Positions 2,152 through 55,016 of a DNA stretch of 64,000 nt are shown here, piece after piece (position 1 is the first letter of the stretch; the number at the start of each line of letters is the position of its first letter). The DNA comes from Escherichia coli (GTDB lineage: Bacteria; Pseudomonadota; Gammaproteobacteria; Enterobacterales; Enterobacteriaceae), in NCBI RefSeq assembly GCF_003790525.1, contig NZ_CP033635.1; one strand, written 5' to 3'. The translations under genes were made by a program, and so were the position numbers. Below the pieces are notes generated by a model. That model saw only the letters and a list, made by a program, of their open reading frames with translations, made no database searches and had not been told where the DNA came from.

Positions 2152-3903
<1,752 letters not shown>

Positions 3904-4968
3904 ATGAGTAAAGTGAAAAGTATCACCCGAGAATCCTGGATCCTGAGCACTTTCCCGGAGTGGGGTAGCTGGCTGAATGAAGAAATTGAACAAGAGCAGG
4001 TCGCCCCTGGCACATTTGCGATGTGGTGGCTAGGCTGCACCGGGATCTGGCTGAAATCAGAAGGTGGCACCAACGTTTGCGTTGATTTCTGGTGCGGCAC
4101 TGGCAAACAAAGTCACGGTAACCCGTTAATGAAACAGGGTCACCAGATGCAGCGCATGGCTGGCGTGAAAAAACTGCAGCCAAACCTGCGCACCACCCCG
4201 TTTGTTCTTGATCCGTTTGCGATTCGCCAGATCGACGCGGTACTGGCGACTCACGATCACAACGATCATATCGACGTTAACGTCGCTGCTGCCGTGATGC
4301 AGAACTGTGCTGATGACGTACCGTTCATTGGGCCGAAAACCTGCGTTGATTTGTGGATTGGCTGGGGCGTACCGAAAGAGCGTTGCATCGTCGTTAAACC
4401 GGGCGACGTAGTGAAGGTAAAAGACATTGAAATTCATGCACTTGATGCTTTCGACCGCACGGCACTGATCACCCTGCCTGCCGATCAAAAAGCAGCTGGC
4501 GTACTGCCGGACGGCATGGACGATCGCGCGGTAAACTACCTGTTCAAAACCCCAGGCGGTACCCTGTATCACAGCGGCGATTCCCACTACTCTAACTACT
4601 ATGCAAAACATGGTAATGAGCATCAGATCGACGTGGCTTTAGGTTCATACGGCGAAAACCCACGCGGTATTACCGACAAAATGACCAGTGCTGATATCTT
4701 GCGTATGGGCGAAGCGCTGAATGCGAAAGTGGTTATCCCGTTCCACCACGACATCTGGTCAAACTTCCAGGCCGATCCGCAAGAAATCCGCGTGCTGTGG
4801 GAGATGAAAAAAGATCGTCTGAAGTATGGCTTCAAGCCGTTTATCTGGCAGGTGGGCGGCAAATTTACCTGGCCGCTGGATAAAGACAACTTCGAGTACC
4901 ACTATCCGCGTGGTTTCGATGATTGCTTCACTATTGAACCGGATCTGCCGTTCAAGTCGTTCCTGTAA
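3904..4968 (+). CDS. ulaG: L-ascorbate-6-phosphate lactonase UlaG (metallo-beta-lactamase fold)
   Basis: [23 protein letters not shown]..., HDHNDH metal-binding motif, 354 aa. Confidence 0.93.
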
Positions 4969-5075
4969 TCTGTCGTTTATACCGGATAGCGTGGAGTAGT
5001 TCGCGCTATCCGGCGTAGTATTTCCTGGCTATTTCAAATATCATCTAAAAAAATCAAATTTTATCGGAATAGCTC

Positions 5076-5831
5076 ATGACTGAAGCACAAAGACATCAAA
5101 TCCTCCTGGAAATGCTCGCACAATTGGGCTTTGTGACCGTTGAGAAAGTCGTTGAGCGTCTGGGAATTTCGCCTGCCACTGCACGACGCGATATCAATAA
5201 ACTTGACGAAAGCGGCAAACTGAAAAAAGTGCGCAATGGCGCAGAAGCTATTACCCAGCAGCGCCCACGCTGGACGCCGATGAATCTGCATCAGGCGCAG
5301 AATCACGATGAAAAAGTACGTATTGCTAAAGCGGCCTCGCAGCTGGTTAATACGGGCGAAAGCGTAGTCATCAACTGCGGCTCCACCGCGTTTCTGCTTG
5401 GGCGGGAAATGTGTGGCAAGCCAGTGCAAATCATCACTAATTATCTACCGCTGGCAAATTACCTGATCGATCAGGAGCATGACAGCGTGATCATTATGGG
5501 CGGACAGTACAACAAAAGTCAGTCCATCACTTTAAGCCCGCAGGGCAGCGAAAACAGTCTCTATGCCGGGCACTGGATGTTTACCAGCGGCAAAGGGCTG
5601 ACAGCAGAAGGGTTGTATAAAACCGATATGTTGACGGCAATGGCAGAGCAGAAGATGCTGAGCGTGGTAGGGAAACTGGTGGTACTGGTTGATAGCAGTA
5701 AGATTGGCGAACGCGCGGGAATGCTTTTTAGCCGTGCCGATCAAATCGATATGCTGATCACCGGCAAAAATGCTAACCCGGAAATCCTGCAACAACTGGA
5801 AGCGCAAGGGGTCAGCATTCTGCGTGTTTAA
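5076..5831 (+). CDS. ulaR: DeoR-family transcriptional repressor UlaR
   Basis: [45 protein letters not shown]... N-terminal HTH, 251 aa. Confidence 0.93.
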
Positions 5832-6758: not shown

Positions 6759-7088
6759 ATGGTTAGCAGGAAACGTAATAGCGTTATTTACCGGTTTGCC
6801 AGTTTATTATTGGTGTTGATGTTAAGTGCCTGTAGCGCACTGCAAGGTACGCCACAGCCAGCACCGCCAGTAACCGACCATCCGCAAGAGATTCGCCGCG
6901 ACCAGACGCAAGGGTTACAGCGAATAGGTAGCGTAAGCACGATGGTTCGGGGTTCTCCGGATGACGCATTAGCAGAAATCAGAGCGAAAGCTGTCGCTGC
7001 AAAAGCTGATTATTACGTTGTCGTCATGGTGGACGAAACCATCGTGACAGGACAGTGGTATTCACAAGCCATTTTGTACCGTAAATAA
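6759..7088 (+). CDS. bsmA: biofilm stress and motility lipoprotein BsmA (YjfO)
   Basis: ORF 6660..7088; start trimmed to MVSRKRNSVIYRFASLLLVLMLSAC (lipobox LSAC), ends ...QAILYRK. Confidence 0.85.
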   Translation: MVSRKRNSVIYRFASLLLVLMLSACSALQGTPQPAPPVTDHPQEIRRDQTQGLQRIGSVSTMVRGSPDDALAEIRAKAVAAKADYYVVVMVDETIVTGQWYSQAILYRK

Positions 7089-7236
7089 ATCAGACAACTT
7101 ACATAGTCAGCTTTACATTGCTTTGCGTCCCTATGCGTTTACCTGTGCACAATAAATTACCGGCTGGAAGCCTGGGCGTTTATTACCGCGATGGAATGCC
7201 CTGCAACATGTGGGGAAACGAAAAATGGAGCTGACG

Positions 7237-7512
7237 ATGAAACAATTACTTGCCTCACCCTCGCTGCAATTAGTGACTTATCCTGCGAGCGCCACGGCAC
7301 AGTCTGCAGAATTCGCCAGTGCTGACTGCGTGACGGGCCTGAATGAAATAGGTCAGATCTCAGTTAGCAATATTTCAGGGGATCCGCAGGACGTGGAACG
7401 TATCGTGGCGTTAAAGGCCGATGAACAAGGTGCGTCATGGTACCGCATTATTACCATGTACGAAGACCAGCAGCCTGATAACTGGCGCGTACAGGCGATC
7501 CTGTATGCGTGA
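7237..7512 (+). CDS. yjfN: DUF1471 periplasmic protein YjfN
   Basis: ORF 7210..7512; MKQLLASPSLQLVTYPASA signal peptide; paralogous C-terminus to BsmA (QAILYA). Confidence 0.85.
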   Translation: MKQLLASPSLQLVTYPASATAQSAEFASADCVTGLNEIGQISVSNISGDPQDVERIVALKADEQGASWYRIITMYEDQQPDNWRVQAILYA

Positions 7513-7628: not shown

Positions 7629-9254
7629 TTACAAACACACTCCTCCCGTCGCCCGCAGCAATAAATCATTCTGGATCTGCTCTGACAACCGTACGCCGCC
7701 GCGCGTATCTAACATCACCTGACACCACGCCTGCGCCATTGGCGGAGAGGCATATTTCAACATTTGCGCACCGCAGCCCAGCAGGAATAGCTGATGAGTA
7801 ATCTCTCGCCCCAATTCTTCAGCTGGCTTACGCAGCTGCTGCTGTAAACGACGAACCGCGCGATCAAAATAGCGATCCTGCCCTTTCACTTCCACAAATG
7901 CTTCCGACAATAAGTCGTATACGCCCGCTTGCTTATTGAGAACGCGCAGCACATCCAGGCACATAATATTGCCGGAACCTTCCCAAATACTGTTTACCGG
8001 CATCTCCCGGTAAAGCCGCGGCAGCTCGCTCTCCTCGCAATAACCAATGCCGCCCAGCACCTCCATCGCTTCGGCCACAAACGGAATACCATGTTTGCAG
8101 ATCACAAATTTCGCCGCAGGCGTAAATAAACGCGCCCACAGAGCTTCTTTGGCATCGGCACGCCGGTCCCACGCTCGCGCAAGACGAAACAGCAACGCCG
8201 TTTGCCCTTCAAGCTGAAGCGCCATGCGACTTAAGACATGACGCATAAGGGGCTGTTGGATCAATGGATTACCAAAAACATGGCGTTGATGTGCATGATA
8301 AATCGCCAGCGAAAATGCACGGCGCATCATGGCATGGCTACCCAGGGCGCAATCAAAACGCGTCATCCCACCCATTTTCAGGATCAGACGAATTCCTTCC
8401 CCTTCCTGCCCCAACAACCAGCCAATGGCATCCTGAAACTCCACTTCGCAGCTGGCGTTAGAGCGATTACCCAGCTTATCTTTCAGCCGCTCGAGGCGAA
8501 TCGCGTTGCGTTGCCCGTCAGGCAAAAAGCGCGGCACAAAAAAGCAGGACAAACCGCCCGTAGTCTGCGCCAGCACCAGATGCGCATCGCTTTGCGGCAC
8601 CGAGAAAAACCATTTATGCCCCACCAGCCGATAAGAGCCATCTTCCAGGCGCTCTGCGCGGGTGGTGTTGCTCATGACATCGGAACCGCCCTGCTTTTCC
8701 GTCATTCCCATGCCAATCAACAAACCGCGTTTTTGCCCACCTGGCAATAAGTGAGAATCGTAGCGATCGCTCAACAGCGGCGTGGTCCAGTCCTGAAACG
8801 GCGCGGGTAACATCTGTAACAGCAATGGCGTGGCGGCAAAGGTCATCGTTATCGGACATAACGACCCAGCCTCAACCTGCGCATGTAACATAAAACGCGC
8901 CGCGCGCGCCACAAATGCGCCGGAGCGAGCGTCTTCTTCCCAGGCAAGATTGTGCACCCGATTGGTACATAGCGCCTGCATCAGCAGGTGCCAGGCGGGG
9001 TGAAAACGCACATCGTCCAGACGGCGTCCTTGCGCATCGTAGCGCAATAATTCAGGCGGATTCACATTCGCCAGCCGCCCCAGTTCAAGGGATTCAGCCG
9101 TCCCTAACTGCTGACCAATACTGGCTAGAAAATCGCTATCCCAGCCAGCACCTTCACGCGTTACCGCTTCGCAGAGCGCGCCATCAGACAGGTATAAATT
9201 GCTGTTATTTAATGGTATAGGTTGATTAAAAACGGTGTGAGTTTGCCAGTGCAC
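7629..9254 (-). CDS. aidB: isovaleryl-CoA dehydrogenase-like adaptive response protein AidB
   Basis: ORF 7629..9272, acyl-CoA dehydrogenase fold; probable GTG start giving 541 aa (VHWQTHTVFNQPIPL...). Confidence 0.9.
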   Translation of the reverse strand: MHWQTHTVFNQPIPLNNSNLYLSDGALCEAVTREGAGWDSDFLASIGQQLGTAESLELGRLANVNPPELLRYDAQGRRLDDVRFHPAWHLLMQALCTNRVHNLAWEEDARSGAFVARAARFMLHAQVEAGSLCPITMTFAATPLLLQMLPAPFQDWTTPLLSDRYDSHLLPGGQKRGLLIGMGMTEKQGGSDVMSNTTRAERLEDGSYRLVGHKWFFSVPQSDAHLVLAQTTGGLSCFFVPRFLPDGQRNAIRLERLKDKLGNRSNASCEVEFQDAIGWLLGQEGEGIRLILKMGGMTRFDCALGSHAMMRRAFSLAIYHAHQRHVFGNPLIQQPLMRHVLSRMALQLEGQTALLFRLARAWDRRADAKEALWARLFTPAAKFVICKHGIPFVAEAMEVLGGIGYCEESELPRLYREMPVNSIWEGSGNIMCLDVLRVLNKQAGVYDLLSEAFVEVKGQDRYFDRAVRRLQQQLRKPAEELGREITHQLFLLGCGAQMLKYASPPMAQAWCQVMLDTRGGVRLSEQIQNDLLLRATGGVCL

Positions 9255-9337
9255 TGTGTCTCCCTCCATCAATGGCAGTCACCATTAGTATGGTCACTGC
9301 CATGGATTCATGACAGAAAGAGATTGCTAAAACATTC

Positions 9338-10501
9338 TTATCCAGCAATGTAATGCGGAACGAAACGTGAGGTGTCTTTGGTGATCAACGTGTTATCTTC
9401 ACGGATCCCCATTCCGCACGCTTCATCATCGACAATCCAGCTACCGATGAGTGTGTAGCTATCGCCAAATCGCGGCAGAGGTTGAAACGCCTGGTAGATC
9501 ATCGGTTCATCGGCGTAATCACCATCAGCGTGGTCAACGACGTTATTCTGACCGTCGAAAATGGTGACGTTTCCGCCTTCGCGCGAGTAAATCGGTTTAC
9601 GCACATAGCTTTCGCCAGCGGCAATCTGCGGTTTTTCACCCTCAAACCAGGATGCAAGAAGGTTAGGATGACCAGGGAAGAAGCGCCAAAGCAGCGGCAT
9701 TAGCCCTTTATTACTCAAGATACTTTTCCATAACGGCTCCACCCATTGCTCACGACGCTTGCGCAGCAGCGGACCGTTATCGTCACGCATCATCCACTCC
9801 AGCGGATACAGCTTAAATGCACGCTGGATGACATTATCATCAAGATCGGTCAGTACTCCGCCGACGCCCAAACCGAGATCTTCAATGTAGATAAACCGCG
9901 ACTCCTGCCCTGCCTGCTGGGCGCAGTCCTGCAAGTACAGCACGGTACTCCTGTCTTCATCGGTGTCCTGACAGCAGCAAAAATAAAACGGTTCCCGACT
10001 GTAAAGCTCACTAAAGCGCGAAATCAGGCGTTCCTGAATGGCATTGTACTGATCGGCATCACGCGGAATAACGCCGCTGCGCCGGGCATCTTCCAGCCAC
10101 AACCACTGGAAATAAGCCGACTCGTACAATGAAGTTGGCGTATCGGCGTTGTACTCCAGCAACTTAACCGGTGCATTACCACACCAGGCAAAATCCATAC
10201 GGCCATACAACGAAGGATCGCGTGCGTGCCAGCTTTCGGCGATCACATCCCAGTACAACGGCGGGATCGCCAGTTGCGTCAGGATCTCTTCATCTTTAAC
10301 CGCACGATCCACCACCTCCAGGCACATCTGATGCAGTTCCGCAGTCGGTTTTTCGATCTGCTCTTCAATCTGGCGCAAAGTAAAGCGATAAGCCCGACTC
10401 TCATCCCAATAGATTTCATTGTCGATGATATGAAAGTCAAATCCGTTATCGGCGGCAATCCGGTCCAGATCCCGCCGCACAGGAACGTTGTGTCTCAGCA
10501 T
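9338..10501 (-). CDS. yjfC: glutathionylspermidine-synthase-like ATP-grasp protein YjfC
   Basis: ORF 9338..10516, trimmed to MLRHNVPVRRDLDRIAADNGFDFH... (387 aa). Confidence 0.88.
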   Translation of the reverse strand: MLRHNVPVRRDLDRIAADNGFDFHIIDNEIYWDESRAYRFTLRQIEEQIEKPTAELHQMCLEVVDRAVKDEEILTQLAIPPLYWDVIAESWHARDPSLYGRMDFAWCGNAPVKLLEYNADTPTSLYESAYFQWLWLEDARRSGVIPRDADQYNAIQERLISRFSELYSREPFYFCCCQDTDEDRSTVLYLQDCAQQAGQESRFIYIEDLGLGVGGVLTDLDDNVIQRAFKLYPLEWMMRDDNGPLLRKRREQWVEPLWKSILSNKGLMPLLWRFFPGHPNLLASWFEGEKPQIAAGESYVRKPIYSREGGNVTIFDGQNNVVDHADGDYADEPMIYQAFQPLPRFGDSYTLIGSWIVDDEACGMGIREDNTLITKDTSRFVPHYIAG

Positions 10502-10503
10502 GA

Positions 10504-11142
10504 TTAGCCTCCCCAATGCCCACGGGCGCTGGAAGAACGACCATAGCCGCCGCGAGAAACGGTTGACGCTTTTTTGGTGGTAAAGCCGCCCGAAGAGTAA
10601 GACTCTTTTTTGCCAGAACCGGAGCGCCAGGAGTAATCACCGGAAGTGTTGCGCCAGACGGGGCGGGAAGCAAATGAGGATCCGCCGCTGTTATAGACGA
10701 ACGGCTCATCGCGATCTTTACGAATAACCCGGCTTAACAAAAATCCAGAAACGACCGGGATCCAACTCTGTTCAACATTGTCGTAGTAACAATTTTCATA
10801 CTTAGACTGACAATTCTGCTGAGTCATATTCTTCGGAACATCGGCATAAAACGCCGCTTTGGCGTTGTTCCAGCCATGAGCACAGATATCTGAATTATTA
10901 CCGTCATCAATACAATCCTGCACAGTCGAGTAAAACGTTCCGTCGCCGTCGTTATCGACATCGCCACTATCGCCACAACCTTTCAATACGAAAAAAGCGG
11001 CACCGCCCATTAGCGCCAACGTTAAGTATTTTTGTGCGTAGCGATTGCGACGCGGTTCAAAAGGATTATTCGGTCTGCCAATGCGACTGATCGCTCCGTG
11101 ACCAATTTTACTGTTATTTCTTGATTTGCGTTTTCTGGCCAT
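10504..11142 (-). CDS. yjfM: DUF1190 protein YjfM
   Basis: 212-aa ORF, basic N-terminus, Gly/Ser-rich C-terminus; operon position. Confidence 0.85.
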   Translation of the reverse strand: MARKRKSRNNSKIGHGAISRIGRPNNPFEPRRNRYAQKYLTLALMGGAAFFVLKGCGDSGDVDNDGDGTFYSTVQDCIDDGNNSDICAHGWNNAKAAFYADVPKNMTQQNCQSKYENCYYDNVEQSWIPVVSGFLLSRVIRKDRDEPFVYNSGGSSFASRPVWRNTSGDYSWRSGSGKKESYSSGGFTTKKASTVSRGGYGRSSSARGHWGG

Positions 11143-11151
11143 GATCGTCCA

Positions 11152-11550
11152 TTACCATGTCATACAAGCTGCGTTAAAAATACCACCAGCCAGTGCGGCG
11201 GTTCCCATAAACATTCCTGCTGCGGTATTGTGATTAATAATTTTTTCGCTTAATGCGGGCATATAAAGTCTGACGCCAGCAAAAACGAGTAACTGAATCA
11301 CCAGTGCAATCCCGCCCCAGGCGAAATAATCCGGAATACTCACCGCATTGATTGCCGCACTGGATAAGGGGATCACGTAACCCAACAATGTACCGCTGAA
11401 TGCCAGTGACGCCGCGGTATTATTGTTTTTGATTAATTGCCATTCGTTGTGCGGTGTAATTTTGGAGTAGATAAACAGAAAAATAATCACCATAGCCACG
11501 CCAATAAAAAAATAGGCGCTAAAGGCAAGAAGTGAATCCAGTATATGCAT
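11152..11550 (-). CDS. yjfL: DUF350 inner membrane protein YjfL
   Basis: 132-aa hydrophobic ORF MHILDSLLAFSAYFFIGVAMVIIFLF... Confidence 0.85.
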   Translation of the reverse strand: MHILDSLLAFSAYFFIGVAMVIIFLFIYSKITPHNEWQLIKNNNTAASLAFSGTLLGYVIPLSSAAINAVSIPDYFAWGGIALVIQLLVFAGVRLYMPALSEKIINHNTAAGMFMGTAALAGGIFNAACMTW

Positions 11551-11567
11551 CGTAAACGTCCTTGTAA

Positions 11568-12227
11568 TTAACCAATAATATGAAGTGATGTCAGTGGGAT
11601 ATCAACACCCAGCGCGCGCGAAAATAACCACTCCGGCTCGCCGAGATCGTTAAAAGATTCCTCACCATTTAACAGTAAATATTCACAGGTATCTTCGGTC
11701 ACCTGCCGTTCATAGCCCATGGTAAAATTATGCACTTCCCATTTGGCGTGGTTTTGATTTTCAACTTTTTCCAGCATATAGACGGGTTCGATATTCCCCG
11801 GTTCTTCGCTGTTAAAAAATCGCTGCCAGCGTTTTTCCTGCCAGTTTAAGGTTATAGCCCCCATCGCTTTGGCGTTGATCGCCTCGCGCCAGTGACTCTC
11901 TTTACTGATACCGTAGCTCTCTTCATAGACAAAGAGCTTGATATCATCAATGTCATCAATATTTTCGCCGCCGGTGGTATTGATTTGCAGAAACTCATCG
12001 CCTGAAGTGTAGTAGCGGAAAATCTGGCTACCGCCGCCCAGATCGATGCGGCTGACGGCGGCTACCGTAAATTCCTCACCCGGCAGCGCAATCAGCAATT
12101 CATCTTCCAGCAAACGAAACGCTAACGTGTCGAGCGTAAAGCCACTATTGAGATGAAGTCCCAGCGGACCACGAGCGATAGCAGGCTTATTATCCTTGCC
12201 AAACAGACGCTGGAAAAAACCAGACAT
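11568..12227 (-). CDS. yjfK: DUF2491 protein YjfK
   Basis: 219-aa ORF MSGFFQRLFGKDNKPAIARGPLGLHL... Confidence 0.85.
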   Translation of the reverse strand: MSGFFQRLFGKDNKPAIARGPLGLHLNSGFTLDTLAFRLLEDELLIALPGEEFTVAAVSRIDLGGGSQIFRYYTSGDEFLQINTTGGENIDDIDDIKLFVYEESYGISKESHWREAINAKAMGAITLNWQEKRWQRFFNSEEPGNIEPVYMLEKVENQNHAKWEVHNFTMGYERQVTEDTCEYLLLNGEESFNDLGEPEWLFSRALGVDIPLTSLHIIG

Positions 12228-12276
12228 ATTTTATCCTTATAATAGTTGCCAGCCTTGCAGTGAGGCTGGCAAAAAA

Positions 12277-12975
12277 TTACTCGCCCTGTTGGCGTTGCAG
12301 TCTTGCTAATACATCCTGGGCGATACTTTTATTGCTACCGCCAATTCCGGCTTCCGCCAGCTTTTCATCGAGATCGCGACCGTCTGCGACTTTTTCCAAC
12401 TGTGCGGCAGCATCCAGGCGAGCCTGACGTTCGGCCTGACGCGTTTGCAGGCGTTTTAAGGATTCTGCCGCTGTCGAAACGCTGGAAGATGCGCCAACGG
12501 TAGAGGTCGTTACAGCCTGTTGTGCACGCTGCATGGCTTCAGTGGCTTTAACGACTTCCATTTGCTGCTCAAACTGAGCGATACGCTGCGCTGTCGCTGT
12601 AACTGCTTTTTCCACGCCATCACGAGAGACTTCCAGATTCGACAACACTTGCTCTTCAGCGGTAATGAGATTCTCAAGGCGCGCGATTTCTTCAGCAACT
12701 TCGTTAATCAACGACGGATTCACGTTCTTGCTTAACGCTTCCAGCGCACGAGCTTCCAGACTGGCTTTGCGCTCACGTAAATCTTTCAGCTTATCGTGAC
12801 TTAATTTCACTCGCGCCAGCAGATCAACGCGAGATTTTCCGGCTTTATCGAGTTCAGCTTTAGCGTCACGAATATGCTGTTCCAGCATGCGCACGCCCTG
12901 GGTTTCTTCAATGGACTCTTCCGCCTGGGAGATAAACGATTTCCCCAGCGTAAATAAACTTTTTAAAATCCCCAT
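12277..12975 (-). CDS. yjfJ: PspA/IM30-family protein YjfJ
   Basis: 232-aa coiled-coil ORF MGILKSLFTLGKSFISQAEESIEE... typical of PspA/Vipp1 family. Confidence 0.88.
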   Translation of the reverse strand: MGILKSLFTLGKSFISQAEESIEETQGVRMLEQHIRDAKAELDKAGKSRVDLLARVKLSHDKLKDLRERKASLEARALEALSKNVNPSLINEVAEEIARLENLITAEEQVLSNLEVSRDGVEKAVTATAQRIAQFEQQMEVVKATEAMQRAQQAVTTSTVGASSSVSTAAESLKRLQTRQAERQARLDAAAQLEKVADGRDLDEKLAEAGIGGSNKSIAQDVLARLQRQQGE

Positions 12976-12993
12976 AAATACCCGTCCTTGTAA

Positions 12994-13395
12994 TTAGTGT
13001 GAATATTCTTCTGTAATTTCAGCCAGATCCAATGCGTTATCTACCAGCGAGGTTATCTCAAGCAGAATATCTTCAAGAGAAGATTTAAGCGATAACGCAC
13101 CGAAAACAATGTAATACTCTTCCTGTTGCACGCTGGAGATCCCTACCGATGACAACGGCATCATCTTCTGATTTCTTAATAAGAAGGTATTAAATTCATC
13201 TGGATTGCTGATACTACTTACCGGACAAATAAAGGTTTCGATGATCATTTGGCGGGAAGTAAAAAGAATATTGATTTGCAAATCGCCATAATCATTCATT
13301 TTAATAATTAATGCGCTTTCGCTATTTGTTACATCAATATTTTGTTCAGGTACAGTTTGCAGCGCCGTCGCCAGCGCCAACGGATTCCATGTCAT
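12994..13395 (-). CDS. yjfI: DUF2170 protein YjfI
   Basis: 133-aa ORF MTWNPLALATALQTVPEQNIDV... Confidence 0.85.
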   Translation of the reverse strand: MTWNPLALATALQTVPEQNIDVTNSESALIIKMNDYGDLQINILFTSRQMIIETFICPVSSISNPDEFNTFLLRNQKMMPLSSVGISSVQQEEYYIVFGALSLKSSLEDILLEITSLVDNALDLAEITEEYSH

Positions 13396-13471
13396 ATATT
13401 ATTCCATATAGATTAAGTTTAAATATTAATAAAATGAATATTTACAGTACGTAATTATCTTACCAGCTATA

Positions 13472-13505
13472 GACAAAAAAAAACCATCCAAATCTGGATG
13501 GCTTT
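13472..13505 (-). terminator. intrinsic terminator downstream of rlmB
   Basis: Hairpin ccatcca-aatc-tggatgg flanked by an A-run and a T-run (bidirectional potential) 17 bp after the rlmB stop. Confidence 0.75.
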
Positions 13506-13521
13506 TCATAATTCAGAGGAA

Positions 13522-38320: not shown

Positions 38321-39823
38321 TCAGTCGAGAGCTAACTCAGGTTTGTTCGCCATGCGACTGCAATAGTTCTGGTAAATCGCCATCGCTAACAGCGAGAAGA
38401 AGACAGGGCCGCCAATCATCCACAATGTGCTGTCCCAGTCTCCAGCTTCAACCACAGGTTGAATGATGGTGAAGACGTTCGCAAATGTCACCACCAGTAC
38501 GACAACCACTGTTGCAATCATTGCCGACATATGCGTTTTGAAAATCACAAACGGTCTGTCGAGATCCTGACGTGCTTTAAAAAATGGGAAAGCCAGCGCG
38601 AGGAACAGGTAAGGAAGCGTCATAGACACGTTCGCCATCAGCGTCAGCTTGTTAAAGAACGCCGATGCGGTACCGCCACCAAACGAAACCAGCAGAATGA
38701 AGATAGTAACCAACCCGCACTGCATCCACATGGCAATAGACGGCATCCCCATCGTATTCAGGCGCGTCATCGGTTCCGGCCACAATGCTTTCGGCGTTCC
38801 CTGGATGATGGCTTTCAGCGGTGAATAGCAAAGCGTAAAGAACGCACCGGTATAAGCGAGGAACATCGACAGTCCGGTAATACGCGCAAACCATACGCCC
38901 AGCGACAATGACGCTTCAGGTGAAAAATGCAGTGCGTTACCCAGCGTCACCCCGAGGCTCTTCATCAGCACATAGGTAATATTGCCGAGGTTAACGGAAC
39001 CATTACTTAATACCTGCTGCCAGTTTGTGCTGACGCCCCATAAAAATATTGCCAGCGAATAACCGATTGAAATAACAATAGCGGCAAAAACAATACCTTT
39101 GGCAAAGTTCTTTTCTGGATTTTCCGTTTTATCGACCAGACCACCCACCGCTTCAATTCCGCCATAGGCAAAAATAGCAAATACCACAAACGATAGCATT
39201 GCCAGACCGGACTGATAACCTGGGTTCGGTGATGCAAGGAAATTAATATCCTGCGCGAAATGCCCACCATTTAATAACAAAATAGTAATGCTTACTAACA
39301 GCAATACTAAATTCAGACACATTACTGCAATACCGCCCACCGCAGTAATGCGGGCAATTTTATTAATCCCCTTTGAAGCAACGACGGTGACCAGAATCAT
39401 CCATGCCACTGCCAGCAGACCAACCACCTGCGTAGGCTCCAGTCCGGCAATACGCCAGTGCTGGGTCATGTCGCTACCATAGAGGAATGTTGAGAACGGT
39501 ACCCAAACTTTCGCTGAGGTACTCACCATCCAGATGATATAAGAGGAAAACCACATAAATGTACCAATGAAGGCAAAACGTGGTCCGACACTATTATTCA
39601 TCCAGGAATAGATACCACCTTCTTCTTTGCGATAAGCCGCTCCCATTTCAGCCATCATTAAGGCGAATGGAATAAAGAATAACAATGCAGAAAATATATA
39701 AAAGGGAATCGCACTATAACCCATTAAGTAATAAGCCGATGGGCTATTGGCAAATCCAAATACGGAAGTAAAGATCATCAATATGAGTCCTATCAGACTC
39801 ATCTTTTTTATCGTGTGAGGCAT
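38321..39823 (-). CDS. yjeM: APC-superfamily amino acid transporter YjeM
   Basis: ORF 38321..39865 trimmed to MPHTIKKMSLIGLILMIFTSVFGF; polytopic membrane protein about 500 aa. Confidence 0.88.
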   Translation of the reverse strand: MPHTIKKMSLIGLILMIFTSVFGFANSPSAYYLMGYSAIPFYIFSALLFFIPFALMMAEMGAAYRKEEGGIYSWMNNSVGPRFAFIGTFMWFSSYIIWMVSTSAKVWVPFSTFLYGSDMTQHWRIAGLEPTQVVGLLAVAWMILVTVVASKGINKIARITAVGGIAVMCLNLVLLLVSITILLLNGGHFAQDINFLASPNPGYQSGLAMLSFVVFAIFAYGGIEAVGGLVDKTENPEKNFAKGIVFAAIVISIGYSLAIFLWGVSTNWQQVLSNGSVNLGNITYVLMKSLGVTLGNALHFSPEASLSLGVWFARITGLSMFLAYTGAFFTLCYSPLKAIIQGTPKALWPEPMTRLNTMGMPSIAMWMQCGLVTIFILLVSFGGGTASAFFNKLTLMANVSMTLPYLFLALAFPFFKARQDLDRPFVIFKTHMSAMIATVVVVLVVTFANVFTIIQPVVEAGDWDSTLWMIGGPVFFSLLAMAIYQNYCSRMANKPELALD

Positions 39824-47394: not shown

Positions 47395-47961
47395 TTACTT
47401 CACGCGAGAGACGTATTCACCAGAGCGGGTATCCACTTTGATGACTTCGCCGATCTGCACGAACAGCGGAACTTTAACCACAGCGCCAGTAGACAGGGTA
47501 GCTGGTTTGCCGCCAGTACCTGCGGTATCACCTTTCAGGCCCGGATCGGTATCAACGATTTCCAGTTCAACGAAGTTCGGCGGAGTAACGGAGATCGGCT
47601 GACCATTCCACAGAGTTACGATACACTCTGCCTGATCAAGCAGCCATTTCGCGTTGTCGCCAATTGCTTTTGCGTCAGCAGACAGCTGCTCGAAAGTTTC
47701 GTTGTTCATGAAGTGCCAGAACTCACCGTCGTTGTACAGGTAAGTCAGGTTCATATCGACAACATCAGCGCCTTCAGCGGAATCAGTAGATTTGAAGGTT
47801 TTTTCTACGCGAGTACCGGTCAGCAGACGACGCAGTTTAACGCGAGCAAATGCCTGGCCTTTACCCGGTTTTACGAATTCACTCGCTTCAACCGCGTAAG
47901 GTTCGCCGTCTAACATGATTTTAAGACCAGCACGAAAATCGTTGCTATAGTACGTTGCCAT
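47395..47961 (-). CDS. efp: elongation factor P
   Basis: 188-aa [52 protein letters not shown]. Confidence 0.97.
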
Positions 47962-48002: not shown

Positions 48003-49031
48003 ATGGCGCATATTGTAACCCTAAATACCCCATCCAGAGAAGATTGGTTAACGCAACTTGCCGATGTTGTGACCGATCCTGATGAACTTCTGCGTCTTTT
48101 GAATATAGACGCGGACGAAAAACTGTTGGCCGGACGCAGCGCCAAAAAGCTGTTTGCCCTGCGTGTGCCCCGCTCATTTATCGATCGCATGGAGAAAGGC
48201 AATCCGAACGATCCGCTTTTGCGTCAGGTAATTACCTCGCAAGATGAGTTTGTCGTCGCGCCCGGATTCTCCACCGACCCGCTGGAAGAACAGCACAGCG
48301 TAGTGCCAGGTTTGTTGCATAAATACCACAACCGGGCGCTTTTGCTGGTCAAAGGCGGCTGCGCGGTAAATTGCCGCTATTGCTTCCGTCGCCACTTCCC
48401 CTATGCCGAAAATCAGGGCAACAAGCGTAACTGGCAGATTGCACTTGAGTATGTTGCTGCGCATCCGGAACTGGACGAGATGATTTTCTCCGGCGGCGAT
48501 CCGCTGATGGCGAAAGATCACGAGCTGGACTGGTTGCTCACACAACTGGAAGCCATCCCGCATATCAAACGTCTGCGGATTCACAGCCGTCTGCCGATTG
48601 TGATCCCGGCACGCATCACAGATGCGCTGGTTGAACGCTTTTCACATTCTACGCTGCAAATCTTGCTGGTGAATCACATCAACCATGCCAATGAGATAGA
48701 TGAAACATTCCGTCAGGCGATGGCTAAGTTGCGCCGGGTAGGCGTTACTTTGCTCAACCAGAGCGTTCTGTTACGTGATGTGAACGATAACGCACAAACG
48801 CTGGCAAACCTGAGTAATGCGTTGTTCGATGCCGGCGTGATGCCGTATTACCTGCATGTGCTCGATAAAGTACAGGGCGCGGCGCATTTTATGGTGAGTG
48901 ATGACGAAGCACGGCAGATTATGCGTGAGTTGCTGACACTGGTGTCGGGATATCTGGTGCCTAAACTGGCGCGAGAAATTGGCGGCGAACCCAGCAAAAC
49001 GCCGCTGGATCTCCAGCTACGCCAGCAGTAA
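48003..49031 (+). CDS. epmB: EF-P beta-lysylation lysine 2,3-aminomutase EpmB (YjeK)
   Basis: 342-aa ORF, radical-SAM motif CAVNCRYC. Confidence 0.95.
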   Translation: MAHIVTLNTPSREDWLTQLADVVTDPDELLRLLNIDADEKLLAGRSAKKLFALRVPRSFIDRMEKGNPNDPLLRQVITSQDEFVVAPGFSTDPLEEQHSVVPGLLHKYHNRALLLVKGGCAVNCRYCFRRHFPYAENQGNKRNWQIALEYVAAHPELDEMIFSGGDPLMAKDHELDWLLTQLEAIPHIKRLRIHSRLPIVIPARITDALVERFSHSTLQILLVNHINHANEIDETFRQAMAKLRRVGVTLLNQSVLLRDVNDNAQTLANLSNALFDAGVMPYYLHVLDKVQGAAHFMVSDDEARQIMRELLTLVSGYLVPKLAREIGGEPSKTPLDLQLRQQ

Positions 49032-49265
49032 CTGATTAAACAGGGAAGTTTAATCTTTGCCCGTTGCATAACCTTTAATTATTCATATACATTGCTGTTG
49101 TTACTCTTTATATAACCAACACCAATAATTAACCTTTCTTTTCTGTTTATATAGAGTGAGCACGGCTATTTATGTTATTTTAACAACTATTACTACCAAG
49201 CCCATTTATCTGGCTTATAAACTAAAATTAATTATTTAATTGAGAAATGGTTAGGGAGAACCTAC

Positions 49266-50135
49266 ATGGCCATAAGCATCAAGGGTGTTAATACCGGTGT
49301 TATTCGCAAGAGTAATAATTTCATTGCACTGGCGCTGAAAATTAAAGAGCCTCGCAATAAAGAATCGTTGTTCTTTCTGTCTGTCATGGAACTGCGCGAC
49401 CTTCTGATTGCGCTGGAAAGCCGTTTGCATCAAAAGCATAAACTGGATGCTGCTGCACGCCTTCAGTATGAGCAAGCTCGCGATAAAGTCATTAAGAAAA
49501 TGGCAGAAAATATCCCAGAAATTCTGGTTGATGAGCTTAAAAATGCCGATATTAATCGTCGGGTTAACACGCTGGAACTTACCGATAATCAGGGTGAAAA
49601 TCTTACCTTCGTATTAACGCTACATGACGGTAGCACATGTGAGTTAGTCATCAATGAATTGCAGATTGAAATGCTGGCGCGAGCAATCATTCATGCAATT
49701 AATAATGCGGAAATGCGTGAACTGGCATTACGTATTACCTCACTGTTAGATTTCCTGCCGTTATACGACGTTGACTGCCAGGACAATGGCAATCTGGAAT
49801 ATGACACCTATTCCCAACCGGAATGGAAACATAACTTGTTCAACCATTATCTGGCGGTGCTTTACCGCTTTAAAGATAAAAGTGGCAAAGAACAATTTAG
49901 CGGCGCAGTGGTGAAAACGCGTGAAGCAACGCCGGGTAAAGAAGTGGAGGCGATCACTCGCCGAATGCTTGATTTCAGCCCCCGACTGAAAAAACTCGCG
50001 GGTGTGCCATGTCAGGTCTATGTTCGCACCGTAGCGGCAAATAATGCCCAACCGCTAACCCAGGATCAATGCTTACGCGCGCTGCATCACTTACGTGTTC
50101 AATCCACCAGCAAAACTGCACCGCAGGCGAAATAA
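49266..50135 (+). CDS. yjeJ: uncharacterised protein YjeJ
   Basis: 289-aa ORF MAISIKGVNTGVIRKSNNFIALALKIKEPRNKESLFFLSVMELRDL; preceded by about 230 bp of very AT-rich DNA. Confidence 0.85.
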   Translation: MAISIKGVNTGVIRKSNNFIALALKIKEPRNKESLFFLSVMELRDLLIALESRLHQKHKLDAAARLQYEQARDKVIKKMAENIPEILVDELKNADINRRVNTLELTDNQGENLTFVLTLHDGSTCELVINELQIEMLARAIIHAINNAEMRELALRITSLLDFLPLYDVDCQDNGNLEYDTYSQPEWKHNLFNHYLAVLYRFKDKSGKEQFSGAVVKTREATPGKEVEAITRRMLDFSPRLKKLAGVPCQVYVRTVAANNAQPLTQDQCLRALHHLRVQSTSKTAPQAK

Positions 50136-50153: not shown

Positions 50154-50175
50154 GAGGCTGGAAGTATCCAGCCTC
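50154..50175. terminator. hairpin between convergent yjeJ and yjeI
   Basis: gaggctgga-agta-tccagcctc perfect 9-bp stem; no clear U-tract. Confidence 0.45.
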
Positions 50176-50184
50176 TGGATCCCA

Positions 50185-50538
50185 TCAGTTCGGGCACTTA
50201 TATACCTGGCCGATAATCTGGCTATCCGTCGGGACAAAACTGGACAACATTCCCTGCGACGGGCTGCTGATGCCATAAATCACGTTACCGCCCATTGCAG
50301 CCGCCTGGTTGCGCAGATCGTTTGCTGCGCCGCGCATAGAACCGCCTTCTTCACCGTGTTGCCCGGAAAGCCAGTTGCTTTGCTTACCTGTCGCAGTACC
50401 AATCAGCTGGCACTCTGCGCCTGGCTGCTCGTCCACAATGCGTACACTCTGACCGGCAGCACTCAATTCGTTGCTGGAGCCACAACCCGCCATCAGTAGC
50501 GCGGCACCGACAATCCCTGCTAAGTATTTTACGTGCAT
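50185..50538 (-). CDS. yjeI: DUF4156 lipoprotein YjeI
   Basis: ORF 50185..50571 trimmed to MHVKYLAGIVGAALLMAGCGSS lipobox (117 aa). Confidence 0.85.
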   Translation of the reverse strand: MHVKYLAGIVGAALLMAGCGSSNELSAAGQSVRIVDEQPGAECQLIGTATGKQSNWLSGQHGEEGGSMRGAANDLRNQAAAMGGNVIYGISSPSQGMLSSFVPTDSQIIGQVYKCPN

Positions 50539-52931: not shown

Positions 52932-54188
52932 ATGAGTGGACTCAAACAAGAACTGGGGCTGGCCCAGGGCATTGGCCTGCTATCGACGTCATTATTAGGC
53001 ACTGGCGTGTTTGCCGTTCCTGCGTTAGCTGCGCTGGTAGCGGGCAATAACAGCCTGTGGGCGTGGCCCGTTTTGATTATCTTAGTGTTCCCGATTGCGA
53101 TTGTGTTTGCGATTCTGGGTCGCCACTATCCCAGCGCAGGCGGTGTCGCGCACTTCGTCGGTATGGCGTTTGGTTCGCGGCTTGAGCGAGTCACCGGCTG
53201 GTTGTTTTTATCGGTCATTCCCGTGGGTTTGCCTGCCGCGCTACAAATTGCCGCCGGGTTCGGCCAGGCAATGTTTGGCTGGCATAGCTGGCAACTGTTG
53301 TTGGCAGAACTCGGTACGCTGGCGCTGGTGTGGTATATCGGTACTCGCGGTGCCAGTTCCAGTGCTAATCTACAAACAGTTATTGCCGGACTTATCGTCG
53401 CGCTGATTGTCGCTATCTGGTGGGCGGGCGATATCAAACCTGCGAATATCCCCTTCCCTGCACCTGGTAATATCGAACTTACCGGGTTATTTGCTGCGTT
53501 ATCAGTGATGTTCTGGTGCTTTGTCGGTCTGGAGGCATTTGCCCATCTTGCCTCGGAATTTAAAAATCCAGAGCGTGATTTTCCTCGTGCTTTGATGATT
53601 GGTCTGCTGCTGGCAGGATTAGTCTACTGGGGCTGTACGGTAGTCGTCTTACACTTCGACGCCTATGGTGAACAAATGGCCGCGGCAGCATCGCTTCCAA
53701 AAATTGTAGTGCAACTGTTCGGTGTAGGAGCGTTATGGATTGCCTGCGTGATTGGCTATCTGGCCTGCTTTGCCAGTCTCAACATTTATATACAGAGCTT
53801 CGCCCGCCTGGTCTGGTCGCAGGCGCAACATAATCCTGACCACTACCTGGCACGCCTCTCTTCTCGTCATATCCCGAATAATGCCCTCAATGCGGTGCTC
53901 GGCTGCTGCGTGGTGAGCACGTTGGTGATTCATGCTTTAGAGATCAATCTGGACGCTCTTATTATTTATGCCAATGGCATCTTTATTATGATTTATCTGT
54001 TATGCATGCTGGCAGGTTGTAAATTATTGCAAGGACGTTATCGACTACTGGCGGTGGTTGGCGGGCTGTTATGCGTTCTGTTACTGGCAATGGTCGGCTG
54101 GAAAAGTCTCTATGCGCTGATCATGCTGGCGGGGTTATGGCTGTTTCTGCCAAAACGAAAAACGCCGGAAAATGGCATAACCACATAA
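52932..54188 (+). CDS. yjeH: APC-family amino acid exporter YjeH
   Basis: ORF 52872..54188 trimmed to MSGLKQELGLAQGIGLLSTSLLGTGVF (418 aa). Confidence 0.9.
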   Translation: MSGLKQELGLAQGIGLLSTSLLGTGVFAVPALAALVAGNNSLWAWPVLIILVFPIAIVFAILGRHYPSAGGVAHFVGMAFGSRLERVTGWLFLSVIPVGLPAALQIAAGFGQAMFGWHSWQLLLAELGTLALVWYIGTRGASSSANLQTVIAGLIVALIVAIWWAGDIKPANIPFPAPGNIELTGLFAALSVMFWCFVGLEAFAHLASEFKNPERDFPRALMIGLLLAGLVYWGCTVVVLHFDAYGEQMAAAASLPKIVVQLFGVGALWIACVIGYLACFASLNIYIQSFARLVWSQAQHNPDHYLARLSSRHIPNNALNAVLGCCVVSTLVIHALEINLDALIIYANGIFIMIYLLCMLAGCKLLQGRYRLLAVVGGLLCVLLLAMVGWKSLYALIMLAGLWLFLPKRKTPENGITT

Positions 54189-54203
54189 TCCGGCGTTTCG
54201 ACA

Positions 54204-54680
54204 TTAATCCTGGCGATCGTCTTTATGATCAAGGCGGTCGCGGTCATCATCCTTTCTCTGGTACTCACCATCAAAAGTATTACCGCCACCGGTCCCGGCG
54301 CTAAAACCGCCGCCTGGCATGCGAGAAAAGCGCAAATGTGGCATCAACTTCACTGTCAGATGCTTTTGCACCGGCGGCAATAAAAGTAGAAGACCGAGGA
54401 AGTCGGTAAAAAAGCCCGGTAATAAAAGCAGCAAACCGGCAATGATCAGCGAAACACTTTTAATCATCTCCGCCGCTGGGTTTTCACCCGCCGCCATTTT
54501 TTGCTGCATCAGCACGAAATTCTTAAAGCCCTGGTTGCGTACCAGTGACATACCGATAACTGACGTGAATATAACCAGCACGAGGGTCAGCAATACCCCC
54601 AATACATGGGCAACCTGAATAAAGATTGAAATCTCAATATAGACATAAAGGAAAATGGCAATAAAAGGTAACCAGCGCAA
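54204..54680 (-). CDS. fxsA: inner membrane protein FxsA
   Basis: 158-aa ORF MRWLPFIAIFLYVYIEISIFIQVAHVLGV ... acidic C-terminus. Confidence 0.92.
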   Translation of the reverse strand: MRWLPFIAIFLYVYIEISIFIQVAHVLGVLLTLVLVIFTSVIGMSLVRNQGFKNFVLMQQKMAAGENPAAEMIKSVSLIIAGLLLLLPGFFTDFLGLLLLLPPVQKHLTVKLMPHLRFSRMPGGGFSAGTGGGNTFDGEYQRKDDDRDRLDHKDDRQD

Positions 54681-55016
54681 AGGTTTCTCCTGTAATAGCA
54701 GCCGGTTAACCCCGGCTACCTGAATGGGTTGCGAATCGCGTTTAGCTTATATTGTGGTCATTAGCAAAATTTCAAGATGTTTGCGCAACTATTTTTGGTA
54801 GTAATCCCAAAGCGGTGATCTATTTCACAAATTAATAATTAAGGGGTAAAAACCGACACTTAAAGTGATCCAGATTACGGTAGAAATCCTCAAGCAGCAT
54901 ATGATCTCGGGTATTCGGTCGATGCAGGGGATAATCGTCGGTCGAAAAACATTCGAAACCACATATATTCTGTGTGTTTAAAGCAAATCATTGGCAGCTT
55001 GAAAAAGAAGGTTCAC

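Follow-up and report, generated by a model that had tools for sequence, protein, structure and literature searches.

The yjeJ gene of Escherichia coli and its AT-rich leader as a probable relic of a fimbrial and microcin island

In E. coli, the gene yjeJ and the very AT-rich leader in front of it are probably the relic of an old AT-rich accessory island at the junction between epmB and yjeI, and yjeJ is best read as the orphaned last gene of an island that encoded fimbriae and a microcin. We read it in this way because an island that ends in yjeJ lies intact at the same junction in relatives of E. coli. The window, by which we mean the whole 64-kb stretch of E. coli DNA analyzed here, carries efp, epmB, a 234-bp spacer, yjeJ, yjeI, groEL, and groES in this order (Table 1). 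Class II microcin cluster genes for a precursor, an adaptor, and an exporter are absent from the window and present in loci from Budvicia (L020), Entomohabitans (L024), and the Klebsiella oxytoca complex (L033), and in a metagenome contig (L023).

While yjeJ is a known, annotated gene, its function is unassigned. As the original prediction had said, nothing in the literature searched assigns one: yjeJ serves as a neutral linked marker where it was deleted, as an entry in promoter and proteome tables, and as the boundary of an ampC amplicon. No paper naming PF15922 or the YjeJ family was found. The decay of an island to one retained gene is a phenomenon of a known kind, and the compositional observation taken alone, like the idea of silencing by H-NS, is ordinary. 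The weight of the case lies in the link to microcins.

Table 1. Positions of the features around yjeJ in the 64-kb window
Feature	Position	Strand	Remarks
efp	47395-47961	-	gene in window
epmB, EF-P beta-lysylation radical-SAM enzyme	48003-49031	+	342-aa ORF; conserved left flank
AT-rich yjeJ leader with promoter, 5' UTR, and ribosome-binding site	49032-49265	+	29.9% GC
Sigma-70 promoter TTAACC-17-TAGAGT	49129-49157	+	-35 at 49129-49134, -10 at 49152-49157
Shine-Dalgarno AGGGAGA	49253-49259	+	read from sequence, 6 nt before ATG
yjeJ coding sequence, 289 aa, PF15922	49266-50135	+	ORF and Pfam
GC-rich hairpin GAGGCTGGAAGTATCCAGCCTC between convergent yjeJ and yjeI	50154-50175		predicted fold
yjeI, DUF4156 lipoprotein	50185-50538	-	Pfam PF13698, E 1.7e-33; conserved right flank
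groEL, groES	beyond yjeI	-	window gene order

The island at the epmB/yjeI junction

In the K. oxytoca complex and in Entomohabitans, the gap between epmB and yjeI holds an AT-rich island of 11-13 kb whose left edge is the epmB stop codon. The intact island consists of a CadC-like regulator, chaperone-usher fimbriae, one to three class II microcin precursors with double-glycine leaders, an HlyD-type adaptor, an ABC exporter with a C39 peptidase (PCAT), and, closing the island 3-31 bp after the exporter, yjeJ. For example, two loci of the K. oxytoca complex (L033 and L034) run from efp and epmB through the regulator, four fimbrial genes, a 122-aa precursor, the adaptor, PCAT, and YjeJ to yjeI and groEL; this island is intact, measures 11.4 kb, and has a single precursor. 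This precursor is common in the assembly collection, where 739 blocks index it. Entomohabitans teleogrylli (L024) has about 13.4 kb in the gap, ordered as in the K. oxytoca complex, with a Trans_reg_C regulator, a four-gene chaperone-usher operon, three tandem precursors, and a YjeJ homolog 23 bp behind the Peptidase_C39 transporter. What appears by eye to be a fragment of an IS630-type transposase follows the fimbrial operon in this genome. In K. pneumoniae the components are rearranged, the order being regulator, adaptor, PCAT, yjeJ, yjeI, fimbrial operon, precursor, and groEL.

The association of yjeJ with the exporter extends beyond this site. Budvicia diplopodorum (L020) and a metagenome contig (L023) both carry an usher, an adhesin, a precursor, an adaptor, PCAT, and YjeJ in succession, and the genes flanking the Budvicia cluster mark a different chromosomal site. 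The PCAT-yjeJ pair stands away from epmB and groEL in these two loci and in L030. In three further contigs the gap between PCAT and YjeJ is 3-18 bp, and two of them have yjeI directly downstream. Each of the seven chromosomal subfamilies examined has PCAT directly before yjeJ, among them that of L029, where the upstream ORF is 89% identical to PCAT. On the other side, a convergent yjeI lies directly 3' of the yjeJ homologs of Atlantibacter, Entomohabitans, K. oxytoca, K. pneumoniae, Salmonella, and two metagenome contigs.

The island precursors are 101-124 aa long, with double-glycine leaders (MKELTVSEMEEIAGG and MRELSVFEMNEIAGG), Gly/Ala-rich cores, and a conserved C-terminal ...NG(K/S/T)F(V/I/R)PW motif. 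Homologs occur in K. grimontii, K. oxytoca, K. variicola, K. quasipneumoniae, and Leclercia, and all are annotated as "hypothetical protein" save one, in Entomohabitans, which is called a "Blp family class II bacteriocin." We found the motif in the main text of no paper. Two microcin-mining papers show no trace of the cluster: neither K. oxytoca nor K. grimontii is named in their main texts, and the available supplements of PMC9746304 do not contain the motif. The exporter matches bacteriocin PCAT models (E 3e-145), and the adaptor matches HlyD. The nearest relative of the exporter in E. coli is mchF, with 64% DNA identity over half the gene, and the island PCAT itself was found in none of the 5426 complete E. 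coli genomes.

At the same junction, Escherichia, Salmonella, Citrobacter, and Atlantibacter have only yjeJ of the island genes. An ancestral island would thus have stood between epmB and yjeI in Enterobacteriaceae, with the lineage of Escherichia, Salmonella, and Citrobacter losing all of it but yjeJ. Two kinds of comparison detected no remnants of island genes in the spacers. Run by tblastn against the loci of E. coli, Citrobacter, and Atlantibacter, the proteins of the regulator, fimbriae, precursor, adaptor, and PCAT gave nothing below E 0.2, and local nucleotide alignment of the E. coli leader with the Klebsiella and Entomohabitans island DNA gave scores within the shuffled range. Since no such remnants and no homology in the leader were detected, the deletion in E. 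coli is deduced from synteny and not from a scar. Consequently, the original prediction of a single-gene islet describes the present state of E. coli, but what was acquired would have been a multigene island of which yjeJ was the last gene.

The YjeJ protein and its possible role

YjeJ has 289 aa and no hydrophobic segment, and it matches PF15922 along its full length (residues 1-283 on profile positions 1-283, E 1.4e-173, 576 bits against a cut-off of 27); no NCBIfam family covers it. Structure prediction, a check that the original prediction had named, gave a confident fold. The AlphaFold2 model (pLDDT 93.3, pTM 0.88) is a soluble alpha/beta protein built of three beta-beta-beta(-beta)-alpha units. 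Foldseek returned nothing significant for this model in the PDB, where the best E was 0.04 and the highest probabilities went to PURA entries, or among viral structures. A sequence profile search of the PDB gave no match, hhalign detected no significant internal repeats, and PADLOC and PHROGs gave nothing meaningful.

More can be learned from how fast the island proteins diverge. Across seven loci with the exporter, pairwise identity is 67-90% for PCAT and 67-80% for the adaptor, compared with 35-56% for the microcin core and 21-50% for YjeJ. Because the core and YjeJ are both hypervariable and the exporter is conserved, YjeJ diversifies like the toxin and unlike the machinery, which suggests the pattern of an immunity protein. 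No other candidate ORF for immunity was evident in four of the five intact clusters. In K. pneumoniae, an unannotated, hydrophobic ORF of 69 aa with two helices follows the precursor and could be an alternative immunity gene. Its homologs are uninformative on this point, as none is diverged and only near-identical copies exist.

We therefore consider, tentatively and at somewhat less than an even chance, that YjeJ may be a soluble, cytoplasmic, microcin-specific partner whose role would most likely be self-protection, that is, immunity. The estimate is kept this low because the large size and solubility of YjeJ and a plasmid homolog without microcin genes count against such a role. Known class II microcin immunity proteins of the Cvi, MchI, and MceB type are small inner-membrane proteins encoded beside the precursor. 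In contrast, YjeJ is large, soluble, and without a hydrophobic segment, and its gene stands after the exporter rather than beside the precursor. Under orphan immunity, E. coli would keep yjeJ as protection against microcins still made by Klebsiella, Leclercia, and relatives. The fuller version of this idea is more doubtful: YjeJ would be a new kind of soluble microcin-neutralising protein, directed at undescribed Gly-rich class II microcins of about 100 aa from Klebsiella, Leclercia, and Entomohabitans, and a core orphan immunity gene in Escherichia, Salmonella, and Citrobacter.

The main functional rival to immunity is a nucleic-acid-binding, regulatory, or chaperone role. YjeJ would then be a PUR/Whirly-like protein that binds single-stranded nucleic acids and either regulates the island or plasmid or chaperones the precursor, and E. 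coli would have kept it for a regulatory role to which it was co-opted. The PURA entries at the head of the Foldseek probabilities do not reach significance, and this is one reason why we regard such a role as unlikely; neither the viral library nor the PDB sequence search supplied a match to strengthen it, and the protein lacks a repeat at the sequence level. Compared with the PUR repeat and Whirly folds (Pur-alpha, plant Whirly, and trypanosome MRP1/2), YjeJ differs in having only about 10-12% identity to them. Moreover, a general regulator or chaperone would hardly be expected to outpace the toxin in divergence next to an exporter that is still 67-90% identical.

Conservation, composition, and expression of yjeJ

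Of 5426 complete E. coli genomes, 5425 have the 1104-bp segment of leader and yjeJ in some form, and 5380 have at least 80% of its length; the segment occurs at 100% identity in E. coli 2014C-3075, and throughout the complete genomes its gene is annotated as a "YjeJ family protein." Within Escherichia, dN/dS of yjeJ is 0.04-0.07 (about 0.05), as in the neighboring genes, with dN and dS both approximately twice those of epmB. yjeJ is a core gene held under purifying selection. Homologs occupy the epmB/yjeI junction in Escherichia, Salmonella, Citrobacter, Atlantibacter, an Enterobacter sp., Klebsiella, and Entomohabitans, and the order epmB-yjeJ-yjeI-groEL is kept in Citrobacter, Enterobacter sp. 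ENT03, Atlantibacter, and Salmonella. Given this shared junction in sister genera, the core status, and the purifying selection, yjeJ is old and not a recent stand-alone insertion.

The family is small and restricted. There were 341 matches among 5.8 billion clustered proteins, and an exhaustive HMMER pass over 1.84 billion representatives yielded 98 clusters at 50% identity. Its named members were traced to Escherichia, Citrobacter, Atlantibacter, Scandinavium, Entomohabitans, Budvicia, Klebsiella, Salmonella, and Serratia plasmids, and those examined (10 clusters and the fetched loci) are all from Enterobacterales, some being plasmid-borne. The homologs on Serratia plasmids are full-length. 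A half-length homolog lies behind parA/parG on E. coli plasmids of about 30 kb, with no microcin genes near it.

The predicted stretch of about 230 bp of very AT-rich DNA before yjeJ was located correctly. The leader, at 29.9% GC in a window of 51.6%, is the lowest 234-bp stretch of the 64 kb; only 0.03% of 234-bp stretches are as low, and all of them lie there. Among the 30 intergenic spacers of at least 80 bp (median 45.1%), it has the second lowest GC. yjeJ itself is also AT-richer than its neighbors, as had been claimed, at 45.3% compared with 52.8% for epmB and 53.1% for groEL (yjeI has 56.2%), and falls at about the 6th percentile of 870-bp windows. GC is 42.5% in the first 600 bp of the gene and 51.5% in the last 270 bp, so that its end is of ordinary composition. 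Across about 57 ORFs tabulated in the window, its GC3 of 0.457 is within the three lowest and its GC2 of 0.332 is the second lowest. Codon usage, however, did not follow the low GC: ranked by the mean log-likelihood of synonymous choice under the pooled usage of the window, yjeJ stands 35th of 56 and is not atypical. Amino-acid composition therefore accounts for part of the low GC.

These features lend some appeal to the view that yjeJ is a native, fast-evolving gene, inherited vertically in Enterobacteriaceae, and that Klebsiella and Entomohabitans later gained the fimbrial and microcin genes in front of it. The link to microcins would then be positional only, and the low GC would come from amino-acid composition and weak codon bias, in keeping with the unremarkable synonymous codons and very low GC2. 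The occupation of the same junction in at least eight genera also fits, as does the course of divergence. Measured against the E. coli protein, YjeJ is 69-75% identical in Citrobacter, 58% in Salmonella, 46% in Enterobacter sp. ENT03, 43% in Atlantibacter, and 33% in Entomohabitans, and this rank order across genera is that of EpmB. YjeJ diverges four to five times faster than EpmB between genera; EpmB is 79-94% identical over these comparisons, and its orthologs in the fetched loci are 79-97% identical to the E. coli protein. We consider native descent rather improbable, as the PCAT-yjeJ pair with its gap of 3-31 bp also occurs off epmB/groEL (Budvicia, L023, and L030), full-length homologs sit on Serratia plasmids, and no family member with an identifiable source comes from outside Enterobacterales. 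In addition, the GC of yjeJ is that of the island and unlike that of the flanks in every host. Island and flank have 45.4% and 53.6% GC in the K. oxytoca complex and 40.7% and 52.6% in Entomohabitans. In K. pneumoniae the island genes have 37-42% and epmB, as the flank, 58%, while yjeJ has 44.9% in Salmonella with flanks of about 55%, and in E. coli its 45.3% stands against 52.8-56.2%.

For the island relic, then, the low GC of the surviving piece would be the island's own composition, preserved. The spacer before the K. oxytoca precursor, at 30% GC, resembles the E. coli leader in composition. That the composition of leader and gene is foreign is supported, and the old horizontal acquisition that had been predicted gains from this composition together with the restricted family, the plasmid homologs, and the shared junction across several genera.

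A constitutive RpoD promoter, TTAACC-17-TAGAGT, is listed for yjeJ in the yjeJ/epmB spacer by Shimada et al. (PMC3946193), whose Fig 3e shows a SELEX-chip peak for it, and we located this promoter in the window sequence (Table 1). A consensus promoter scan misses it, as it scores 8/12, below the scan threshold. From its position, transcription would start near 49164 and leave a 5' UTR of about 100 nt. The promoter-proximal 130 bp or so of the leader are kept between Escherichia and Citrobacter, as is the block GGTTAGGGAGA at the Shine-Dalgarno sequence, and Rfam had no match in the leader. Beyond the gene, the hairpin GAGGCTGGAAGTATCCAGCCTC has a predicted energy of -18.8 kcal/mol (z = -3.2 against shuffles) and no clear U-tract; we infer that it may act as a terminator. 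According to the literature, the sigma-70 promoter inside the AT-rich leader drives yjeJ by itself, and the product is made in normal culture: proteomics of LB-grown cells quantifies YjeJ (PMC9508795). yjeJ is also among listed Nac-regulated genes, being down in long nitrogen starvation.

H-NS silencing, as originally proposed for this locus, is not supported by these data. The yjeJ/epmB spacer is not flagged among 987 H-NS sites of in vitro genomic SELEX, while the neighboring rows for cadB, adiA, and yjcF do bear the mark (PMC3946193). A silent yjeJ fits poorly with the mapped promoter, the protein in LB, and this missing SELEX mark. The least probable of the explanations, that a stand-alone, laterally acquired yjeJ and its leader are silenced by H-NS bound to the AT-rich leader, can draw on the low GC of both, the tiny and restricted family, and the plasmid-borne homologs, but it also has against it the Nac regulation, the homologs that end a multigene island at the same site, the core status of yjeJ in E. 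coli, and its presence in sister genera.

Significance and comparison with known systems

Placing yjeJ at the end of a class II microcin export operon provides a cheaply testable hypothesis for a core gene of E. coli and draws attention to a microcin family that carries only the label "hypothetical" in public databases. It also suggests that microcin clusters can hold a large soluble fourth component. The locus is a clean case of a multigene island reduced to one surviving gene, whose foreign composition persists across genera. If yjeJ is an orphan immunity gene, it would help to shape who kills whom among gut Enterobacteriaceae.

Compared with AT-rich xenogeneic islands silenced by H-NS, yjeJ is alike in being AT-rich relative to the genome, in the extreme AT content upstream, and in its foreign origin. 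It is unlike them in having a sigma-70 promoter, no SELEX mark, and a protein product in standard culture.

Well-studied class II microcin clusters include that of colicin V (cvaC-cvi-cvaA-cvaB) and those of MccH47/M with MchEF. The loci of the relatives resemble such clusters in combining double-glycine precursors, an HlyD-type adaptor, and a C39-peptidase ABC exporter in one operon, and mchF, from the MccH47/M exporter MchEF, is the nearest E. coli homolog of the island exporter. However, the relatives' precursors are long (101-124 aa) and of a family annotated as "hypothetical," and no canonical small membrane immunity gene is evident, a soluble YjeJ of 280-290 aa being there instead. The E. 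coli window differs further in holding only the last gene of the operon.

Orphan immunity genes are known from colicin, contact-dependent inhibition (CDI), type VI secretion (T6SS), and bacteriocin systems. Like them, yjeJ has outlasted the toxin and export genes and is kept by purifying selection, has homologs within a putative toxin/export operon (3-31 bp 3' of PCAT in seven independent subfamilies), is hypervariable between lineages in the manner of a toxin, and has stand-alone copies on plasmids. It is unlike them in that its product is soluble and far exceeds known microcin immunity proteins in size, its protective role is predicted, and the gene is core to the whole species and not a variable accessory. 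A fourth component of class II microcin clusters that is large and soluble, and that E. coli retains as a core orphan gene, is possibly a new element among these systems.

The epmB–yjeJ spacer as a junction

The intergenic region between epmB and yjeJ bounds five of the ampC amplicons listed in a study of evolution under amoxicillin (PMC12625342), and the AT-rich yjeJ leader, which fills this spacer in the window, may be a recombination-prone junction. A chromosomal-type yjeJ is also present on a 24.5-kb E. coli record filed as a plasmid (NZ_CP048309.1). Our guess is that this "plasmid" is an excised amplicon of the ampC type.

The length of the spacer varies among relatives. In cryptic Escherichia clades, E. 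whittamii, and E. coli E69 (loci L002, L003, L004, and L010), it measures 368–392 bp, versus 234 bp in the window, with approximately 150 extra bp lying directly 3' of epmB. Judged by its sequence, this addition looks like a palindromic element of the REP/BIME type (gcctgatgcg...cttatcaggcctaca ... tgtaggccggataaggcg...). The E. albertii spacer is of another version, 259 bp long. In Citrobacter youngae ATCC 29220 (locus L008), an ORF of 572 aa sits between epmB and yjeJ and lengthens the spacer to 1967 bp; the GC content of this spacer is 49.8%, and that of the ORF is ordinary. The ORF is a further sign that insertions are tolerated at the epmB/yjeJ junction.

Coordinates of features in the window and in related loci
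Feature	Location	Remarks
yjeJ leader	window 49032-49265	
ORF	window 12994-13395	38.6% GC, GC3 0.406
Spacer after that ORF	window 13396-13521	24.6% GC, below the yjeJ leader
ORF between epmB and yjeJ	L008 (C. youngae) 4060-5778	
Half-length YjeJ-family gene	L027 (E. coli plasmid pLAU-OXA4, NZ_CP045281.1) 7001-7492	163 aa; Pfam match weak, E 7e-4
Microcin precursor copies	L024 (Entomohabitans) 8229-9802	

Low-GC stretches and a binding peak

Several other stretches of the window fall below the GC level of yjeJ, with starts near 2981–3581, 10671–13051, 38831–39541, and 54111–54821. Within yjeJ itself, a SELEX study of minor sigma factors reported a binding peak at W3110 coordinate 4371850 with an intensity of 4.9, tabulated in the section on heat-shock sigma (PMC5493296).

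YjeJ homologs on plasmids and in mislabelled records

On pLAU-OXA4, the half-length YjeJ-family gene lies 27 bp 3' of parA/parG, and its carriers form a group of non-mobilizable E. coli plasmids of approximately 29–35 kb. The yjeJ genes assigned to Bacillus coahuilensis m4-4 (L001, a contig of 1358 bp) and to the Bacteroidales MAG H10 (L013) encode proteins 97–98% identical to that of E. coli, and both assemblies are almost certainly contaminated with E. coli. Among the PLSDB records CP125156.1 (5.37 Mb), NZ_CP134663.1 (4.9 Mb), and NZ_OM317741.1 (452 kb, IncHI2), several are chromosomes filed as "plasmids." The last of these, from Salmonella, includes a piece of chromosome that extends from epmA to dcuA, with frd, efp, epmB, yjeJ, groEL, and aspA in between; either the assembly is chimeric, or the plasmid has captured part of a chromosome.

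Microcin precursors and fimbriae in the islands of relatives

In the Entomohabitans island, the microcin precursor is present in three nearly identical tandem copies, one of them split, and each is followed by an AT-rich repeat of approximately 420 bp. In K. pneumoniae (L031), the fimbrial-plus-precursor block is placed across yjeJ–yjeI, on the other side of these two genes; several genes of this locus look frameshifted, which may reflect sequencing errors. Linkage between the microcin cluster and a chaperone-usher fimbrial operon recurs at four independent loci, namely those of Budvicia (L020), a metagenome contig (L023), Entomohabitans (L024), and the K. oxytoca complex (L033), and two of these lie away from groEL. 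This recurrence suggests that fimbriae and microcin move together as a single module.
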